Shown piece after piece: positions 5,412 through 53,997 of a stretch of DNA of 64,000 bases. The notes under the pieces are model-generated. The model saw nothing but the letters and a program-made list of their open reading frames with translations. It searched no databases and had not been told where the DNA came from. Location of the stretch: the NCBI GenBank assembly GCA_900548005.1, contig URIZ01000001.1:93756-157755 (forward strand), given 5' to 3'. The DNA comes from an uncultured Eubacteriales bacterium. Lineage in GTDB: Bacteria; Bacillota; Clostridia; Christensenellales; CAG-917. Made by a program: the position numbers and the translations under genes. The first letter of the stretch is position 1; every line of letters begins with the position of its first letter.

Positions 5412-5999
5412 ATGGCTTACAGACCGAAAATTAAGAATGCCAACGGCACTCTTACCGATTTGCCGTTGGAAGCCGAAACGTCGGTAAAACTAAAAACCGC
5501 AAGGACAATCGGTTTGTCGGGAGTTACTGCAACGGCTAAAAGTTTTGACGGGAGCGGAAACGTTACGATTCCTGTCACGGAAGTCCCGGTATCGCTTTTG
5601 ACGGGGTTACTTGAAAAAACATATCCCGTCGGAGCAATTTATATGTCCACGGTATATATCAGCCCAGCGTCAATCTTCGGAGGAACTTGGACAAGACTCT
5701 ACGACAGATTCCTCGTGGGCGGAGGTTCTGACTATTCCATAGGAAGTACAGGCGGCGAAAAAGCACATAAATTAACGACTACGGAAATGCCTGCGCATAC
5801 TCACTTTGCGAATAAATATAAAGACGGAATGAACTACATTGTGCATTACAGTTCTAATGAGACAACAGGCTTTAAAACTTCTGCGGGTAGTGGTGGGCAT
5901 GGTGTGTTGCTTGCTGGACTTGAGAATACGGGTGGTGGTAATGAACACAACAATTTGCCTCCGTATTTAGCAGTGTATATGTGGAAAAGAACGGCTTAA
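5412..5999 (+). CDS. Tail fibre protein with a phage tail-collar domain
   Basis: Contains PVGAIYMS...GGTWTRL...GGEKAHKLTTTEMPAHTH...GGGNEHNNLPPYLAVYMWKRTA, the hallmark of the tail-collar (MdpB-like) domain. GGGGG ribosome-binding site. Confidence 0.8.
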   Translation: MAYRPKIKNANGTLTDLPLEAETSVKLKTARTIGLSGVTATAKSFDGSGNVTIPVTEVPVSLLTGLLEKTYPVGAIYMSTVYISPASIFGGTWTRLYDRFLVGGGSDYSIGSTGGEKAHKLTTTEMPAHTHFANKYKDGMNYIVHYSSNETTGFKTSAGSGGHGVLLAGLENTGGGNEHNNLPPYLAVYMWKRTA

Positions 6000-10672: not shown

Positions 10673-10748
10673 TGGTGGAGACAAGGGGATTCGAACCCCT
10701 GGCCTTTTGAATGCCATTCAAACGCGCTACCAACTGCGCCATGCCCCC
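10673..10748 (-). tRNA. tRNA-Ala (anticodon GGC)
   Basis: The reverse complement folds as a cloverleaf: acceptor GGGGGCA/UGUCUCC with G3-U70, D stem GCGC/GCGC, anticodon stem UUUGA/UCAAA with loop AU-GGC-AU, variable loop AGGCC, T arm AGGGG-UUCGAAU-CCCCU, discriminator A, and encoded CCA. Length 76 nt. Confidence 0.95.
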
Positions 10749-25172: not shown

Positions 25173-26126
25173 ATGTTTGTAAAATTCTTGACAAGCGCAA
25201 TCGCGTTGAGCTCCGTGTTCCTTTACGGCTCAACGGGTGAAATCATCGTCGAAAAAGGCGGACACCTCAACCTCGGTATCCCCGGCATCATGAGCGTCAG
25301 CGCGGCAGTCAGCGCGCTTGTTGAATACGCGCTCATAAAAGGCATGGGTACAAGCGCACCGGCTTTGCTTGTGATTATACCAATCATCGTAGCATTTCTC
25401 GTGGGCGGACTTATGGGTTTGCTATACAGCTTTCTCACCGTCACGCTCAGATGCAATCAAAACGTCGTCGGTCTTGCAATGACCACTCTCGGCGTAGGAC
25501 TTGCGGGCTACTACATGACAGGCGCAGGCTCAAAGATCATGATCGTCGCAAGAGCAAGCAAATATTTCGCCACGCTTTTCGATGTGTCGGGTGGCGGCGC
25601 ATTTGCCAAAATATTCTTCTCGCACGGCATCATGGTGTATCTTGCAATCATCATCGCCGTCATCGCGCAAATCGTGCTCAGCAAGACAAGAACAGGTCTC
25701 AATCTCCGTGCCGTCGGTGAAAACCCCGCAACCGCGGATGCTGCAGGCATCAACGTTTCAAAATATAAATATGTCTCAACCGTTATCGGTTGCGGTATAT
25801 CCGGTTTGGGCGGTCTCACTTGCGTTATGGACTATATGGGCGGCAACTGGGAATACGTTCTCGAAGGCTTTGGCTGGCTCTCCATTGCACTTGTCATTTT
25901 CACGCTTTGGAAACCCGCATTGTCAATTCTCGGCTCAATCATTTTCGCCGGTTTGTACATCGCATCCTTCTACGTTGAAGGCATCTCGTTTGCGCAAATC
26001 GAACTCATCAAACTCTTGCCTTACGTTGTCACCGTTCTTGTGCTTATCATCACCAGCATGATCAACAAGCGTGAAACGCAAGCACCGGCGGCGCTGGGGC
26101 AGTCGTATTATCGCGAAGACAGATAA
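25173..26126 (+). CDS. ABC transporter permease (BMP-system, second subunit)
   Basis: Starts 2 nt after the previous stop, following AAGGGGG. Polytopic, with the motif TRTGLNLRAVGENPATADAAGINV typical of this permease family. Confidence 0.85.
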   Translation: MFVKFLTSAIALSSVFLYGSTGEIIVEKGGHLNLGIPGIMSVSAAVSALVEYALIKGMGTSAPALLVIIPIIVAFLVGGLMGLLYSFLTVTLRCNQNVVGLAMTTLGVGLAGYYMTGAGSKIMIVARASKYFATLFDVSGGGAFAKIFFSHGIMVYLAIIIAVIAQIVLSKTRTGLNLRAVGENPATADAAGINVSKYKYVSTVIGCGISGLGGLTCVMDYMGGNWEYVLEGFGWLSIALVIFTLWKPALSILGSIIFAGLYIASFYVEGISFAQIELIKLLPYVVTVLVLIITSMINKRETQAPAALGQSYYREDR

Positions 26127-26251
26127 AAACGCGCTATTGAGCGAACAACTTCGGCAGAGCCATGCTCCCGTCAACTCATGTACTAAATGTACATTAGGGT
26201 TGCCGTTAGCGTGGCTCTTTCTTGTTCTTCATCTCAATATCGCGTTTTTAT
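26123..26251 (+). repeat. Long-hairpin element, copy A (129 nt)
   Basis: Near-complete palindrome centred at 26186. Outer stem ATAAAAACGCG/CGCGTTTTTAT, then TATTGAG/CTCAATA, GAACAA/TTGTTC, AGAGCCATGCT/AGCGTGGCTCT, and apical ATGTAC-TAAAT-GTACAT. Confidence 0.85.
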
Positions 26252-26362: not shown

Positions 26363-26455
26363 GTAGGGTGGGACACCCACACCCGATTTAGAATAATCGA
26401 CAATTATCAAATTATCCGTGTCATTCTGAGCGTAGTCGAAGAATCTAGCGTAGCG
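26363..26455 (+). repeat. Modular intergenic repeat unit (GGGTGGGACACCCACACCC ... GTCATTCTGAGCGTAGTCGAAGAATC)
   Basis: About 93% identical to the reverse complement of 53712-53806. A second same-strand copy lies at 26618-26720. Confidence 0.85.
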
Positions 26456-26617
26456 AAAATGCGCCTGACGGCTAGATGTTTCGACAGGCTACTCGCAACT
26501 GCTATGCTTGCGCATAGAACCTGCGGTTTCGCCTTTTTCAAAGGCGTTGCTACGTGAATACATACGCTACGCAACCCTTGCAAGCAAGTTGCTCCGCTTT
26601 GCATTGACAACATGGTG

Positions 26618-26720
26618 GTAAGTGTGGGACACCCACACCTGATTGAAAATATTCTGTAGGGTGGTATAAATTATCCTTGTCATTCAGAGCGTAAGCGAAG
26701 AATCTCGTGGAAACGAAACG
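26618..26720 (+). repeat. Modular intergenic repeat unit, second copy
   Basis: GTGTGGG-ACA-CCCACAC perfect hairpin, then GTCATTCAGAGCGTAAGCGAAGAATCTCGTGGAAACGAAAC. The tail matches the reverse complement of 53712-53730. Confidence 0.8.
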
Positions 26721-49416: not shown

Positions 49417-50733
49417 ATGGCAAAAATGACAATCCGCGACGTAGACGTCAAAGGCAAAAAGTGTTTGGTGCGTTGTGACTTCAACGTGCCGATGGTTGAC
49501 GGTGTTATCACCGACGAGAACCGCATCAACGGCGCTCTTCCCACCATCCAATATCTCGTTGATCACGGCGCAAAAGTGATCCTTTGCTCGCACATGGGCA
49601 AGCCTCACAACATCTTCACGGAAGGTTTCGGCCTCAACAAGAAGGAAAAGAAGGCTGTTGAAGCTCTTCCCGAATCCGAGCAAGCGGCTGCAAAAGCAGA
49701 ATATATTGCAAAAGCTCTCAAAAACGATCAAAAGAAATTCACTCTCAAGCCCGTTGCGGACAAACTCGCCGAGCATTTCCCCGGCAAAGTCACATTTGCA
49801 ACCGATTTGGTTGGCGAAGACGCTCACAACAAAGTTGCCGCTCTCAAAGACGGCGAGATTGTTTTGCTTGAAAACACTCGTTTCTATGCAGGCGAAGAGA
49901 AGAACAGTGAAGACCTTTGCAGACAACTTGCAGACTTCTGCGACATCTATGTCAACGACGCATTCGGCACGGCTCACCGCGCTCACGCAACCACCGCAGG
50001 TATCGTTCAATACGGTTTCGCGCCCGTGGCTGTGAGCGGTTTCCTTATCGAAAAAGAGCTCAAATTCCTTGGCAATGCAATCGAACACCCCGTTCGTCCG
50101 TTCGTTGCGATTCTCGGCGGCGCAAAAGTTGCCGACAAGCTCAACGTCATCGACAATCTTCTCAACAAATGCGACACGCTCATCATCGGCGGTGGCATGG
50201 CATACACCTTCATCAAGGCTCAAGGCGGCAGCGTCGGTCTTTCTCTCGTTGACGATGAAAAGATCGATTATTGCAACACCATGCTCGCAAAGGCAAAAGA
50301 GCTCGGTAAGACCATTTATCTTCCCGTTGACACCGCAACTTGCGCAGGTTTCCCCGATCCTATCGACGCACACGTTGACATCGAATATTGCCCCAGCGAC
50401 GCAATCCCCGCCGACCGCGAAGGTCTTGACATCGGCCCCAAGACGCAAGAGCTCTTTGCTCAAGCCGTCAAGTCCGCAAAGACTGTCGTTTGGAACGGTC
50501 CTATGGGCGTTTTTGAAAATCCGCAACTCGCAGCCGGCACGAACGCCGTTGCAAAAGCCATGGCAGAAACCGACGCAACCACGATCATCGGCGGTGGCGA
50601 CTCCGCAGCAGCCGTTGCTCAACTCGGCTATGCCGACAAGATGACTCACATCTCAACCGGTGGCGGCGCATCCTTGGAATTCCTTGAAGGTAAGGTTCTG
50701 CCCGGCATCGCCTGCCTCAACGACAAGCACTAA
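49417..50733 (+). CDS. pgk: Phosphoglycerate kinase (with a ~37-aa insertion after the GKP motif)
   Basis: [28 protein letters not shown] and [14 protein letters not shown] are present. AAAGGAG ribosome-binding site. Confidence 0.95.
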
Positions 50734-50846
50734 TCGGCGAACAACTGCGTCAAATCGTTTTTTTCGCCCGTCACGTACGCAAAGTACGTTGGGCGGGTGA
50801 AAAAAACACTTTTCCTTGTTCTTCATCCGATTATCGCTGTCGTTGA
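50717..50846 (+). repeat. Long-hairpin element, copy B (130 nt), overlapping the last 5 codons of pgk
   Basis: Palindrome centred at 50781: TCAACGACA/TGTCGTTGA, TAATCGG/CCGATTA, GAACAA/TTGTTC, TTTTTTTCGCCCG/CGGGTGAAAAAAA, and ACGTAC-GCAAA-GTACGT. Confidence 0.85.
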
Positions 50847-50898
50847 CACGTGACAATATGAAGGGACAGAACATTCAATTTTCGCAATCGTTCGACAA

Positions 50899-51010
50899 GC
50901 ACTAATCGGCGAACAACTGTGTTAAATCAGTTTTTTCACTCGTCACGTACGACAAGTACGTTGGGCGAGTGAAAAAAGCAGCTTTTCCTTGTTCTTCATC
51001 AGATTAGCGC
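50899..51010 (+). repeat. Long-hairpin element, copy C (tandem to B)
   Basis: Centred at 50953: GCACTAATC/GATTAGCGC, GAACAA/TTGTTC, TTTTTTCACTCG/CGAGTGAAAAAA (12 bp perfect), and ACGTAC-GACAA-GTACGT. It is preceded by a 17-nt copy of the pgk 3' end. Confidence 0.85.
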
Positions 51011-51084
51011 GTGCGTTTTATACCTAGCGGAATAGGACGGAACAAAGGAAAAAACATATTGAAAATAAATTTTTGGAGTATATT

Positions 51085-51834
51085 ATGAGAAAACCCATTA
51101 TTGCAGGCAACTGGAAAATGAACAACACCATCGCTGACACAAAAGCACTTATCACCGATCTTGCTCCGCTCGTCAAAGACGCGGCTTGTGACGTGGTTAT
51201 CTGCACTCCGTACACCGATTTGGCAACTGCGGTTGAAATGACCAAAGGCACAAACATCCATGTCGGCGCAGAAAACGTGCACTGGGCAGAAAAAGGTGCT
51301 TTCACCGGTGAAATCTCCGCAAAAATGCTTGTGGAACTCGGTGTCGAATACGTCATCATCGGTCACTCCGAGCGTCGTCAATACTTTGGCGAAACCGATC
51401 AAACCGTCAATGCTCGCGCAAAGGCTGCTTTGGCTGCAGGGCTCAAACCCATCATCTGTGTGGGTGAAACTCTCGAAGAGAGAGAAGGCGGCAAGGTTGA
51501 AGAAGTGCTTGTCCGTCAAACCAAGGGCGCATTCGAAGGCATCGACAAAGACGATCTCGACAACGTTGTCATCGCATACGAACCCGTTTGGGCAATCGGC
51601 ACCGGCAAGACTGCAACCGCAGAAGTTGCAAACGAAACCATCGCAATCATCCGCAACACCATGGCAGAGCTTTATTGCCCCAAGTGCGCAGAAAACCGCG
51701 TCCGCATCCAATACGGCGGCAGCATGAACCCCAAGAACGTTAAAGAACTCATGGCTATGCCTGAAATCGACGGCGGTCTTATCGGCGGCGCATCGTTGAA
51801 AGCAGTTGACTTCTCACAAGTCGTAAACTACTAA
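51085..51834 (+). CDS. tpiA: Triosephosphate isomerase
   Basis: MRKPIIAGNWKMN, IIGHSERR, AYEPVWAIGTGKTAT and YGGS are present. GGAG lies 8 nt upstream of the ATG at 51085. Confidence 0.95.
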   Translation: MRKPIIAGNWKMNNTIADTKALITDLAPLVKDAACDVVICTPYTDLATAVEMTKGTNIHVGAENVHWAEKGAFTGEISAKMLVELGVEYVIIGHSERRQYFGETDQTVNARAKAALAAGLKPIICVGETLEEREGGKVEEVLVRQTKGAFEGIDKDDLDNVVIAYEPVWAIGTGKTATAEVANETIAIIRNTMAELYCPKCAENRVRIQYGGSMNPKNVKELMAMPEIDGGLIGGASLKAVDFSQVVNY

Positions 51835-51843
51835 AAATCAATC

Positions 51844-51881
51844 ATCTAACCGCCCAAATTTTACGGACGGTTAGATTTTTC
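51844..51881 (+). terminator. Rho-independent terminator after tpiA
   Basis: ATCTAACCG...CGGTTAGAT (9 bp) followed by TTTT. Confidence 0.7.
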
Positions 51882-51895
51882 AAAAGGAAAATAAT

Positions 51896-53461
51896 ATGAA
51901 AAAACTTGTTTTAGTCGTTATGGACGGCGTTGGCAAGTCCAAGACGGGACTCGGCGATGCCGTAACTTTGGCAAACACTCCGACGCTTGACGCTCTTCTC
52001 AAAGAATGCCCCAACACCTACATCAAGGCGCACGGCACGGCGGTCGGTCTTCCCAGCGACGACGATATGGGCAACAGTGAAGTCGGTCACAACGCGCTCG
52101 GTTGCGGTCAAGTCTATTCGCAAGGCGCAAAACTCGTTGAAGAAGCAATCGAAAGCGGCGATATTTTCAATTCTGCCGCATGGAAAGAGCTCAAAGACAA
52201 CTGCGTTGCCAACTCGTCCACGATGCACTTCATCGGCTTGCTCTCGGACGGCAACGTGCACAGCAACATCGGTCACCTTATCGCTCTTGTCAAGGGCGCA
52301 AAGGAAAGCGGCGTAAAGCACGTTCGCATCCACGTTTTGCTTGACGGCAGAGATGTCCCCGCAACAAGTGCGCTCGTGTATGTCGATATGCTCGAATCCG
52401 CTCTCAAACAGCTCAACGACGACAACTTTGACGCATGCATCGCAAGCGGCGGTGGCAGAATGGTCATCACTATGGACAGATATTTCGCAAACTGGGATAT
52501 GGTCAAACAAGGCTTCTACACCCACGTTTACGGACATGGTAGAGGCTTTGCATCCGCAACGGACGCAATCGAAACCTACCGCGCGGAAAATCCCGGCGTC
52601 ATCGACCAAGATTTGCCCGCATTTGTCATCGTCAAGGACGGCAAGCCCGTCGGCGCAATGCACGACAACGACAGCGTCATCCTTTTCAACTTCCGCGGCG
52701 ACCGCGCAATCGAAATCTCTATGGCGTTTGACAATGACGATTTCAGCGGCTTTGATCGCGGAAATATGCCCAAAGTGCTTTACGCAGGTATGCTTCAATA
52801 CGACGGCGATTTGCATCTCCCCAAGAGATTCCTTGTCGAGCCGCCGCAAATCAAATATACGCTCAGCGAATTTCTCGTCAACCATGGCGTGAAGTCCTAC
52901 GCTGTGTCCGAAACGCAAAAGTACGGCCACGTCACGTATTTCTGGAACGGCAACCGCTCCGAAAAATTCAGTGACGCTCTCGAAGTGTGGGAAGAAGTCC
53001 CCTCCGACAAAGTGTCCTTCGATCAACGTCCGTGGATGAAGTCCGCAGAAGTCACCGACAAGGTCATCGACGCGATCGAATCCGATGAGTACGGATTTAT
53101 CCGCTGCAACTATCCAAACGGTGATATGGTCGGTCACACCGGCAATCTCGATGCCACAATCATCGGTGTCGAGGCAGTGGATCTCGCTCTTGCAAGACTC
53201 CTTCCCGTCATCAAGAAAAACGACTATGCTCTCATCGTCACCGCCGATCACGGCAACGCCGACGAGATGCTCGAAAAGAACAAAAAAGGTCAAGTTGCCG
53301 TGCGTACCGCGCACTCGCTCAACCCCGTTCCTTTCATCGTCTACAACTATGATTGCACCATCGCCGACGGCTCTTTCGGACTTTCCGATGTAGCCGCAAC
53401 GGCAGTGAAGATTATGGGGTTTGAGCCGGATGCTCACTGGGACCCGTCCATAATCCGCTAA
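51896..53461 (+). CDS. gpmI: 2,3-bisphosphoglycerate-independent phosphoglycerate mutase
   Basis: LVVMDGVG, GNSEVGHNALG, LSDGNVHS and TADHGNAD are iPGM hallmarks. Length 521 aa. Confidence 0.95.
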   Translation: MKKLVLVVMDGVGKSKTGLGDAVTLANTPTLDALLKECPNTYIKAHGTAVGLPSDDDMGNSEVGHNALGCGQVYSQGAKLVEEAIESGDIFNSAAWKELKDNCVANSSTMHFIGLLSDGNVHSNIGHLIALVKGAKESGVKHVRIHVLLDGRDVPATSALVYVDMLESALKQLNDDNFDACIASGGGRMVITMDRYFANWDMVKQGFYTHVYGHGRGFASATDAIETYRAENPGVIDQDLPAFVIVKDGKPVGAMHDNDSVILFNFRGDRAIEISMAFDNDDFSGFDRGNMPKVLYAGMLQYDGDLHLPKRFLVEPPQIKYTLSEFLVNHGVKSYAVSETQKYGHVTYFWNGNRSEKFSDALEVWEEVPSDKVSFDQRPWMKSAEVTDKVIDAIESDEYGFIRCNYPNGDMVGHTGNLDATIIGVEAVDLALARLLPVIKKNDYALIVTADHGNADEMLEKNKKGQVAVRTAHSLNPVPFIVYNYDCTIADGSFGLSDVAATAVKIMGFEPDAHWDPSIIR

Positions 53462-53574
53462 ATCGCGAATAGCATCGGCAAAGCCCCTTGCCCATCAACT
53501 CATGTACGATTTGTACATTAGGGTTGCTGTTCAAGGGGCTTTTTCTTGCTCTTCATCGATTTATCGGATTATGG
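53448..53574 (+). repeat. Long-hairpin element, copy D (127 nt), overlapping the last 4 codons of gpmI
   Basis: Palindrome centred at 53510: CCATAATCCG/CGGATTATGG, TAAATCG/CGATTTA, AAGCCCCTTG/CAAGGGGCTT, and ATGTAC-GATTT-GTACAT. Confidence 0.85.
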
Positions 53575-53635: not shown

Positions 53636-53669
53636 GTCATTGCGAGCCGACTTGTTCGGCGTGGCAATC
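53636..53669 (+). repeat. GTCATTGCGAG...GCAATC hairpin module (variant of the GTCATTCTGAGCG module)
   Basis: ATTGC/GCAAT stem enclosing an inner GCCGA-CTTGT-TCGGC hairpin. The frame (GTCAT..GAGC....ATC) matches the ATTCT/AGAAT modules. Confidence 0.6.
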
Positions 53670-53711
53670 TCGCGGTAGCGGAATGATGTGAAATGACATA
53701 TATATAGTGCT

Positions 53712-53806
53712 GTTTCGTTTCCACGAGATTCTTCGACTACGCTCAGAATGACACGGAAAATTTGATAATTGTCGATTTTTCCAAATCGGGTGTGGGTGTC
53801 CCACCC
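53712..53806 (-). repeat. Modular intergenic repeat unit (inverted copy of 26363-26455)
   Basis: GTTTCGTTTCCACGAGATTCTTCGACTACGCTCAGAATGACACGG...CGGGTGTGGGTGTCCCACCC is the reverse complement of the 26.4-kb unit, at about 93% identity. Confidence 0.85.
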
Positions 53807-53810
53807 AACT

Positions 53811-53915
53811 GTCATGTTGAGCATAGTCGAAACATCCAGCCGCAAGGCGCATATCTTGTTTTTTCTTTTCGCTACGCTAGATTCTTCGATGCTCTCAGAA
53901 TGACACGGAATATTG
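53811..53915 (-). repeat. Second modular block (inverted counterpart of 26420-26502)
   Basis: GTCATGTTGAGCATAGTCGAAACATCCAGCCGCAAGGCGCAT...CGCTACGCTAGATTCTTCGATGCTCTCAGAATGACACGG aligns at about 80% with the reverse complement of 26420-26502. Confidence 0.75.
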
Positions 53916-53997
53916 GAATTTTACCGCTTAAAGCAAGCGATGCCGTTGCCGCGATGACGGCTTTTGTTCATTATTCATTATTTATTACTAATTAAGT

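Follow-up and report, generated by a model that had tools for sequence, protein, structure and literature searches.

Stop-anchored palindromes between pgk and tpiA as tandem members of a dispersed repeat family

Between the genes for phosphoglycerate kinase (pgk; 49417..50733, + strand) and triosephosphate isomerase (tpiA; 51085..51834, +), within 64 kb of DNA from an uncultured Eubacteriales bacterium (contig URIZ01000001.1 of assembly GCA_900548005.1), stand two large hairpins, here called B and C. The 64-kb stretch as a whole is referred to as the window, and coordinates are positions within it unless another contig is named. The question which these hairpins raise is whether they represent a structure that is particular to this one locus or instead something more general. 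The answer is that B and C belong, as a tandem pair, to a family of dispersed imperfect palindromes, each of about 127 nt. What such elements do can be answered less firmly. With moderate confidence we view them as interspersed palindromic repeats, i.e., REP/BIME-, ERIC- or Correia-like, which are co-transcribed with the gene upstream and which may then serve as a hairpin barrier or as a processing site at the 3' end of the mRNA.

Two hairpins downstream of pgk

Both genes are open reading frames (ORFs), with PF00162 carried by homologues of pgk and PF00121 found in the orthologous loci of tpiA, and tpiA lies 351 nt 3' of the pgk stop. The 3' end of pgk reads ...CTC AAC GAC AAG CAC TAA, the stop codon being 50731-50733, and the final 13 coding bases together with this stop make up the distal part of the left outer arm of B. 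The 17-mer CGACAAGCACTAATCGG (50721-50737), that is, the final pgk codons, the TAA stop and 4 bases beyond, recurs exactly at 50893-50909, just as an earlier note on this DNA had claimed, and the exact match is longer even than that, 27 nt, reaching 50747 in the one copy and 50919 in the other. A 22-mer from inside this repeat occurs exactly 2 times in the 64 kb, versus an expectation of 0 from shuffled sequence. The similarity of about 85% that had been attributed to B and C is borne out as well, as 93 nt at 87% identity plus 45 nt at 80%, with a spacing of 172-173 nt (repeat search, with which pairwise alignment agrees).

Element B (50718..50845, +) is supported by its fold along with a family model, described below, which scores it at 106.6 bits on the + strand and at 21.5 bits on the - strand. 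Its outer stem, P1, consists of a left arm, CAACGACAAGCACTAATCG (50718-50736), which is to say the final pgk codons, the stop and 3 more bases, paired with a right arm, CGATTATCGCTGTCGTTG (50828-50845). Within P1 are found a left box, GCGAACAAC (50737-50745), and a right box, CTTGTTCTTCATC (50815-50827), and within these a variable stem, T7-CGCCCG (50758-50770) paired with CGGGTG-A7 (50794-50806), along with a tip, TCA-CGTAC-loop-GTACG. Element C (50893..51022, +; supported in the same way, 92.7 bits on the + strand) possesses a left arm that is a copy of the pgk 3' end (50893-50908), a left box (50909-50917), a stem of T6-CACTCG (50931-50942) paired with CGAGTG-A6 (50966-50977), a right box (50988-51000) and a right arm, AGATTAGCGCGTGCGTTTTATA (51001-51022), with all of these parts on the + strand in both elements. 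Each element over its whole 125-130 nt is one interrupted palindrome, and both fold as long imperfect hairpins, B at -57.2 kcal/mol (z = -7.75) and C at -42.4 kcal/mol (z = -3.78).

The central helix is CGCCCG (50765-50770) with CGGGTG (50794-50799) in B, and CACTCG (50937-50942) with CGAGTG (50966-50971) in C. Helix position 4 has thus changed on both sides, its pair being C:G in B and T:A in C, while at position 2 the G·T of B is matched by A:T in C. Once its T and A runs are included, C possesses a 12-nt helix, 50931-50942 with 50966-50977, that is 100% complementary. These sequences confirm what had been proposed, that is, a C:G-to-T:A double substitution, the G-U pair gone, a perfect 12-bp helix in C, and a divergence over which the pairing of stems has been retained. 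The two units (50721..51044, +), the first being 50721-50892 and the second beginning at 50893 with homology to about 51044, are homologous over left arm, element, right arm and a trailing 'ggac(a/g)gaaca' segment. A 172-nt unit, consisting of the pgk 3' end as left arm, the element and a trailing spacer, was in other words duplicated in tandem, and the claim that the duplication had included the coding end of pgk is upheld to that extent.

A simple terminator scan yields no terminator-like site on the + strand from pgk to tpiA, in agreement with the claim of no classical terminator there. The promoter/terminator scanner is not one built for hairpins of this size, and its result is used solely for that absence. 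B, furthermore, is without a U-tract, while C carries GTTTTAT. That B or C acts as a terminator within the pgk-tpiA operon is unlikely, as transcription must read through at this point.

A dispersed family anchored at stop codons

Pieces that are conserved in B and C recur within the window after a permease gene (26126) and after gpmI (53461). The pattern GCGAAYARC-N60-85-CTTGYTCTTCATC has 4 matches in the 64 kb, all on the + strand, where 0 are expected, one following the permease gene, two following pgk and one following gpmI. A covariance model of the family, as built from 104 copies, likewise picks out exactly 4 copies in the window. These score 93-130 bits on the + strand but 21-41 bits on the - strand, from which it is clear that the element is polar. 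The first of the four, E26k (26124..26250, +; 130 bits), stands after an ABC-transporter permease gene (25173-26126, PF02653), with its P1, TAAAAACGCGCTATTGA paired with TCAATATCGCGTTTTTA, beginning at the stop codon. A copy that is identical to E26k is found on a gut metagenome contig of 294,846 nt, and the element is absent after the permease gene in relatives at 88% and 73% protein identity. In one relative (L128, its positions 2155-2300) a run of small hairpins, TTGCGC...GCGCAA or AAAAGCG...CGCTTTT, replaces the family element after the orthologous permease gene. The last of the four, E53k (53448..53574, +; 130.3 bits), follows gpmI (51896-53461), and its P1 consists of CCATAATCCGCTAAATC paired with GATTTATCGGATTATGG, the left arm including the final gpmI codons plus the stop, 53459-53461.

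Beyond the window, the box pattern was found at no fewer than 118 loci across one genome per GTDB species. Among the matches listed, most are from metagenome-assembled genomes (MAGs) of uncultured gut Clostridia. The Clostridia listed include 'Christensenella sp.' UBA7588, UBA767, UBA6880 and UBA7571, a complete 1.65-Mb chromosome (CP091723.1), Firmicutes CAG:475 and CAG:238, and UMGS1170, 1331, 1366 and 1042, and the non-Clostridia listed are three Opitutales MAGs, one Verrucomicrobia MAG and one Deltaproteobacteria MAG. A few matches in Pseudomonas and Acetobacteraceae were rejected as chance since they lie inside of coding sequence. Also left unused as evidence of host range were MAGs of a 'cleanbin' set, with taxonomy labels (Phascolarctobacterium, Butyrivibrio, Barnesiella, Treponemataceae and others) that are mutually inconsistent. 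Two members of that set labelled Barnesiella intestinihominis and Treponemataceae (L067 and L070) possess nearly the same gene and element, and gut bins labelled Phascolarctobacterium, Butyrivibrio and Anaeroplasmataceae carry typical Clostridia-type copies. Either the labels or the binning of this set look unreliable.

Rfam 15, at gathering threshold and over the whole window, supplies no family for the element, the sole match being a tRNA gene (10676-10748, -), and E-value scans of B plus C and of E26k gave only chance-level matches to microRNA precursors (E > 1). A literature search found no description of the element, though as most subscription journals were not covered this is not proof of novelty. 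Two matches on viral contigs, of 84 and 106 nt, were taken no further, and among viral contigs there was no sign of phage association.

These distributions bear directly on the question posed at the outset. A pgk-tpiA regulatory hairpin, specific to this locus and duplicated once, would be in keeping with B and C being adjacent, 80-87% identical and sharing the pgk 3' end. The same architecture, however, is seen after the permease gene and gpmI in the window as well as after dozens of unrelated genes elsewhere, and a relative with a 93% identical PGK has no element between pgk and tpiA. We attach next to no probability to the locus-specific reading, which the window copies, the GTDB loci and the matches to the family model together refute, and with it falls the earlier view of a structure that is specific to pgk, there being 4 copies in the window and more than 100 elsewhere. 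The unit under selection is the family-wide element rather than a regulator of pgk.

The layout which family members share is, in order, a locus-specific outer stem, a GCGAAYARC box, a variable stem, a TCAYGTAC-loop-GTAC tip, a CTTGYTCTTCATC box, and then the outer stem again. P1, the outer stem, is of 16-18 bp, with consensus TAAAAnnGCGCTATTKA / TMAATATCGCnnTTTTA and one fixed C/T mismatch, and differs by locus. The boxes are asymmetric and highly conserved, GCGAAYARC-TGCGTCA on the left and CTTYCTTGYTCTTCATC on the right. Between them they form a box helix, P2 (GAAYARC/GYTCTTC), of 7 bp with a fixed central mismatch, and with conserved flanks, TGCGTCA and CTTYCTT, that are unpaired. P3 is the variable stem, 12-18 bp, and the tip is a conserved module, TCA-YGTAC-loop-GTACR-YT(RGG). 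That the unpaired boxes are conserved points to a specific binding partner, whether a mobilising enzyme or an RNA- or DNA-binding protein. None of K-turn, loop-E, hammerhead, C/D-box, cre or dif fitted the boxes in a by-eye comparison.

Pairing across the family is pronounced. Two-sided changes are seen in 36 of the 42 consensus pairs, and paired cells make up 92.7% of the total versus 65.2% in shuffles and 39-45% with slid partners. The two-sided changes number 1171, versus 354 in shuffles, and even within P2 one pair covaries, being A-T in 81 copies and G-C in 19. Of the claim that the hairpin is the selected unit, then, it is these family-wide two-sided changes which lend support, a single compensatory pair between paralogues, as B and C had provided, being weak evidence. 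The types of pairs nonetheless weaken the case for selection upon RNA. Stepwise compensation in a sense RNA is expected to give rise to many G·U pairs and to few A·C, but among 4342 cells 3968 are Watson-Crick, 59 are G·U, 99 are A·C and 216 are other, so that the sense-strand G·U excess which would have been a sign of RNA-level selection was not found. As wobble pairs are nearly absent, the Watson-Crick palindromy may be held at the level of DNA, and the census fits with arms that, in DNA, either are created as exact inverted repeats or are maintained as such.

Where the elements sit relative to genes is regular. Among the 75 copies with enough flanking sequence, 63 are found where a same-strand ORF of at least 90 codons ends at the element, with only 2 having a convergent ORF alone, one of these latter being a spurious antisense ORF beside C. 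The first base of the stop codon falls 15-17 nt before the left box, and P1 starts 0-4 nt upstream of that base. In 56 of 67 copies the right arm carries, opposite the stop codon, the exact reverse complement of that codon (TAA/TTA, 42 of 50; TGA/TCA, 12 of 14; TAG/CTA, 2 of 3), but the preceding sense codon is mirrored in just 14 of the 67, and the outer edge of the palindrome is on this basis the stop codon. The same anchoring is seen in copies from Opitutales, from Deltaproteobacteria and from an 'Alistipes'-labelled MAG. Ordinary terminators in the window start instead 6-30 nt after stop codons, and the anchoring thus is specific to the family. The base following the mirrored TTA displays no A or G bias, as judged from a by-eye reading of the sequences rather than a count.

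The genes upstream are housekeeping or metabolic, with 82 proteins matching 111 Pfam families (L1, PGK, aldolase, LysRS, GDH, Fe-hydrogenase and NrdD), and no mobile-element genes are found among the upstream proteins in the 25 Pfam families listed. At some loci the ORF continues into P1. PL(K/R), for example, ends both LysS and an unrelated gene, from the same P1 variant, and gpmI of the window ends ...SIIR, as encoded by the left arm. A TTTT is found in the right arm (+10 to +22) of 35 of 81 copies.

So close a tie to stop codons invites the idea of a cis-acting RNA element that is linked to translation termination, with the terminating ribosome melting P1 but leaving the boxed core intact, there to be read by a protein. 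The element might thereby report on translation of the upstream gene as, e.g., a closed, nuclease-resistant state versus an open one. The stop-to-box distance of 15-17 nt is about that which a ribosome with the stop codon in its A site covers of the mRNA downstream, and a terminating ribosome would on that basis be expected to melt P1 only. The frequency of stop anchoring, the constancy of the stop-to-box distance, the strict sense polarity, the application of the same rule in other phyla, loop sequences which are invariant while stems covary, and a lack of stop anchoring by the window's ordinary terminators all speak for this idea. Against it are the lack of any sense-strand enrichment of G·U over A·C, an absence of known partner protein or Rfam family, and the behavior of the elements over time (next section): these come and go between close relatives and strains inside of an essential operon, with no fixed requirement seen, and their tandem, truncated and nested copies resemble repeat dynamics rather than a tuned regulator. 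On balance we regard coupling to termination as possible but somewhat doubtful.

Turnover of copies

To compare spacers, we located the contigs of PGK homologues with 91-95% identity. In order of increasing length, the pgk-tpiA spacer is 27 nt in L124, with no element; 97 nt in L125, with an unrelated small hairpin; 233 nt in L040 (UMGS1331), with one element that combines the outer stems of B with an unrelated centre, plus an X remnant and a second copy of CGACAAGCACTAA; 351 nt in the window, with B, the X remnant and C; 415 nt in L121, with X right after pgk, then an element with the left arm and centre of C but the right arm of B, an X remnant and a truncated C; and 590 nt in L122, with a B-like element, X in intact form, the beginning of a degenerate C, and a repeat that is unrelated. 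X here is a third family element, which in the window survives in the B-C spacer (50846..50892, +) as a degraded right box ending ...gaacat (50870-50874) and a right outer arm, TCAATTTTCGCAATCGTT (50875-50892, +). In L121 X is intact and has this right arm, and the X of L122 is closely similar.

The count among these relatives consequently runs from no copy to at least three. As the spacer holds a remnant of X, and as X is intact in L121 and L122, the history of the locus must be more than that of one duplication, and of the proposal of two hairpins from a single duplication it is the tandem copies that stand. The second copy of the pgk end is, by this comparison, older than the splits between these species. 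The direction of change is probably the reverse of that which had been supposed, from B to C. An outgroup copy, the second element of L121, carries CACTCG/CGAGTG, and because of this C-type stem the T:A of C is probably ancestral, with the C:G of B derived.

Within the species, contigs from seven samples were considered which encode exactly the window's PGK protein. Three of these (L131, L135 and L136), as independent assemblies, possess B and C arranged as in the window, and the two-copy arrangement, shared as it is by three independent assemblies, is therefore not an assembly artefact. A fourth, L134 (GCA_964315185.1), has a spacer of 179 nt and one unit fewer, its single element consisting of the left arm and centre of B with the right arm of C, which is the product that would be expected of unequal recombination in the right box. 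Copy number thus was found to vary from one to two within the species. More generally, unequal recombination between conserved parts of adjacent copies alters copy number and produces chimeras, such as those of L134 and L121. The question of whether the paired substitutions are linked receives a divided answer: the two are partly unlinked, as the first element of L132 possesses CACTCG on the left with CGGGTG on the right, i.e., a T·G wobble at the covarying pair, and the two substitutions therefore do not always travel together, a wobble intermediate existing between them.

Smaller differences among conspecific strains are seen in the T and A runs (50758-50764 and 50800-50806), which vary over T6-7 and A7-9 in strains including L131, L133, L135 and L136, and in two strains a C-to-G change breaks the GTAC tip helix. 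In L133 (ERZ28574839 scaffold_1051) an N-gap with duplicated flanks is found exactly at the tandem elements, which indicates that the repeat causes assembly problems in short-read metagenomes. The element would in turn help to reveal such problems, as tandem copies invite collapse or gaps.

Copies elsewhere display similar mixing. The 104 cores fall into 57 clusters at an identity of 88% or more, the largest with 11 members, and members of one such cluster possess different genes upstream along with different, self-complementary outer stems. Conversely, the orthologous pgk elements of the window and L040 keep their outer stems but have unrelated centres. Copies, that is, exchange modules, a core subfamily being joined to one outer stem at one locus and to another elsewhere. 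In L121 gpmI is followed by two elements, G1 and G2, of which G2 corresponds to E53k. The window has lost G1 and has gpmI fused to the left arm of G2, L124 has a nested or recombined pair, and L125 has none. A first reading from window versus L040, in which the right arm after gpmI had been re-templated on coding sequence, was withdrawn, as L121 already possessed the arm pair as its second element, with a deletion then fusing gpmI to it.

The ends of proteins vary as well. PGK tails following CLND/E can be nothing, K, KD, KH, KQ, AK, RAN, A or G, which is consistent with repeated remodelling of the gene's end by the repeat. The PGK proteins of this clade, at 433-440 aa, are longer also at the N-terminus, by ~40 residues relative to a core query of 397 aa (P0001-P0120). 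A repeat which remodels gene C-termini, as with these PGK tails, the ...SIIR of gpmI, and the PL(K/R)* of LysS and its unrelated counterpart, represents a hazard to annotation.

The right arm of B is complementary to 8 or more nt of pgk coding sequence, CAACGACA, in which the Leu-Asn-Asp(-Lys) C-terminus is encoded. This region is largely kept (gAACGACA) at the empty site of L124, and the Leu-Asn-Asp C-terminus is conserved across the clade. Such observations allow for a more speculative idea, one to which we extend only tentative credence, which is that these are a previously unrecognised class of element with a closing stem that is built upon the host's stop codon. In one version the element would be an RNA device, coupled to termination, that senses translation of the upstream cistron by way of a conserved protein partner. 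In a second version a mobile core would, wherever it inserts, form its closing stem anew by copying the 3' end of the gene in inverted orientation, without duplicating a target site. It is the occurrence of the same core with different self-complementary stems, the complementarity of the right arm of B with pgk coding sequence, and the retention of most of that sequence at the empty site of L124 which suggest the second version. If true, its insertion chemistry would be unlike that of known bacterial miniature inverted-repeat transposable elements (MITEs).

Likeness to known systems

The reading which we favour, that of an interspersed repeat with a role in mRNA, draws upon likenesses with several families of repeats. 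The element would be DNA that spreads or is exchanged within the genome and that is transcribed together with the gene upstream. In the mRNA it would fold, right where the reading frame ends, into a hairpin of about 55 bp with interruptions, and that hairpin, by blocking 3'-to-5' exonucleases or by serving as a processing site, would then set the stability of the upstream cistron. Of possible effects, such an exonuclease barrier or processing site is the most likely. The elements otherwise sit inside of an essential pgk-tpiA-gpmI cluster in which no + strand terminator is predicted.

REP, BIME and REPIN sequences of Proteobacteria are, as is the family, interspersed palindromes that are found in transcribed intergenic regions and at gene 3' ends within operons, and REP and BIME often form tandem clusters with polymorphic copy numbers. 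REP elements stabilise upstream mRNA. Liang, Rudd and Deutscher, in 2015, reportedly saw that a REP within about 15 nt of a stop codon affects translation of the upstream gene. REP units nevertheless measure 20-40 nt, carry a GTAG-type head that is conserved, and are found in either orientation, alone or as inverted doublets, whereas the family consists of a single palindrome of ~127 nt, with its conserved sequence internal (GCGAAYARC and CTTGYTCTTCATC), a locus-specific outer stem, strict polarity and anchoring at stops. ERIC (or IRU) sequences of Enterobacteriaceae and Vibrio are similar by description, being imperfect palindromes of about 127 bp that are transcribed, intergenic and variable between strains, but occur in both orientations, have no tie to stop codons and belong to another host phylum. 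We know of no sequence similarity between ERIC and the family. Correia elements (NEMIS/CREE) of Neisseria, and MITEs, are hairpin repeats of 100-150 bp with inverted ends which are co-transcribed and which form subfamilies and mosaics, and Correia elements sometimes supply stop codons. Correia elements, however, duplicate a TA target and possess fixed 26-bp terminal inverted repeats. Fixed ends are a mark of MITEs too; the outer stem of the family has a consensus but differs between loci with the same core. In the family no target-site duplication was found: in 76 copies direct repeats of 2-4 nt flank the element at chance level only, with TA, TAA and generic target-site duplications all unsupported. 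Membership in the REP/RAYT, MITE/Correia, attC and Rfam families fails upon defining features.

What, then, might move such an element? REP and REPIN sequences have in their genomes a RAYT gene (Y1 HUH), typically flanked by repeats. Among 6782 ORF segments, from 0.93 Mb around elements, phmmer found no match at E <= 1 to IS200 TnpA or E. coli RAYT, and none to IntI1, which is a weak negative. Nor was a transposase-like ORF seen beside copies in scans of upstream proteins and element flanks. One alternative is that of a single-strand-DNA hairpin which is moved by an HUH enzyme (RAYT or IS200-like), or by some other structure-specific enzyme, with the palindrome as substrate, the boxes as sites of recognition or cleavage, and polarity resulting from access to the non-template strand of transcribed genes. 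Such movement accords with stems that are almost purely Watson-Crick, with very few wobble pairs, with core subfamilies that are common to several loci, and with asymmetric conserved boxes that flank the hairpin. Less easily accommodated is the polarity, which follows the gene by 63 to 2 (as scored against genes alone), while HUH elements follow the direction of replication. The element in addition is about four times the length of a REP unit, with no GTAG-type head, no inverted pair of copies was seen flanking a gene, and no Y1 transposase was recovered by the above search (a weak test). In favour of an available enzyme, Group 1 RAYTs have been reported in Clostridia and 21 bacterial classes (PMC5581495). 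Movement by an HUH or similar enzyme strikes us overall as unlikely.

Several of these same results weigh against the interspersed-repeat reading that we favour. The missing enzyme matches, within the limits of that search, and the missing target-site duplications are two of these. No clean pair of empty and filled sites was obtained, moreover, and deletion plus tandem duplication alone could explain presence versus absence. Strict polarity and stop anchoring are not traits of REP, ERIC or Correia, and point instead to a constraint that is read by transcription or by translation. That the boxes are conserved in at least two phyla would indicate a dedicated function and not just a repeat which is tolerated. 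The rarity of G·U pairs does not fit a structure that is shaped only by selection on sense RNA, and the TTTT of right arms is unrelated to the orientation, co-directional or convergent, of the next gene. The role in mRNA, lastly, is a matter of inference.

Two further known structures resemble the family in more limited ways, these being the attC sites of integrons, for which the upstream genes would be cassettes, and elaborate intrinsic terminators, and we consider an identity with either to be highly improbable. An attC site too is a structured, imperfect palindrome right after an upstream stop, in fixed orientation, with paired boxes that contain AAC/GTT triplets and, beyond these, a spacer without pairing and a centre that varies. 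The boxes of attC, though, are R'' RYYYAAC and R' GTTRRRY, while those of the family are GAAYARC and GYTCTTC, with AAC/GTT in about 80% of copies and the purine/pyrimidine pattern inverted, and the family possesses an extra 17-bp stem outside of its boxes. Also, attC sites are found in cassette arrays by intI, but here the genes upstream belong to the syntenic core, as do pgk-tpiA-gpmI, in all relatives with or without elements, and also rplA, fba and lysS, and neither a cassette array nor an IntI-like match was found near elements in the 0.93 Mb (IntI1 query, a weak negative). As to intrinsic terminators, the consensus outer stem does present an A-tract, a GC-rich stem base and a T-tract, and TTTT is found in the right arms of a number of copies. 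Nonetheless more than half of copies lack this TTTT, B is without a U-tract even while being inside of an operon, U-tracts are unrelated to downstream gene context, and a hairpin of about 55 bp contains conserved internal loops, or boxes, that have no role in intrinsic termination.

The element in any case is an abundant, structured and strain-variable feature of small-genome, uncultured gut Clostridia ('Christensenella sp.', CAG:475 and UMGS labels) and of Opitutales, hosts for which non-coding DNA is essentially unexplored, and it would be of use in the typing of strains. A conserved, stop-based hairpin of fixed polarity that recurs across phyla goes beyond what REP, ERIC or Correia, as known, would account for, and provides a testable link between interspersed repeats and translation termination or the metabolism of mRNA 3' ends. 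Strains with none, one, two or three copies inside of pgk-tpiA-gpmI, in addition, represent a natural experiment by which operon expression may be compared.

Repeats of other kinds are found nearby. The tpiA-gpmI spacer, of 61 nt, contains a simple 13-bp hairpin, ATCTAACCGCCC...GGACGGTTAGAT (51844-51876), which scores as a terminator on the - strand only and which is identical in L121, with other sequence there in L122 and L124. A further repeat, gacggaacNcgagccgcaNNgcggcgag...cgccgaNcttgacgNaNagtacaagcgactgcgccgt, is common to relatives downstream of family elements (L122, about 5590-5700; L040, 5160-5254), and has 0 matches in the window with up to 3 mismatches allowed. Within the window a second repeat family, GGGTGGGACACCCACACCCGATTT...AATCGACAATTATCAAATT.TCCGTGTCATTCTGAGCGTAGTCGAAGAATCT..., occurs at 26366-26460 (+), 26622-26720 (+) and 53700-53830 (-), with a partial copy at 53880-53920 (-), and its 17-mer GGGACACCCRCACCCGA has 3 occurrences versus 0.01 expected. 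A related motif, GGGCGGGGACACCCGCACCCGA, is found after the permease gene in L129, and beyond the gpmI element stands a hairpin-like motif, gtcattgcgagccgacttgttcggcgtggcaatctcgcgg (53636-53680, +), with a likeness to the 'GTCATTSYGAGCG...GAATC' part of this second family. Every copy of the second family is in an intergenic region that also holds stop-anchored elements.

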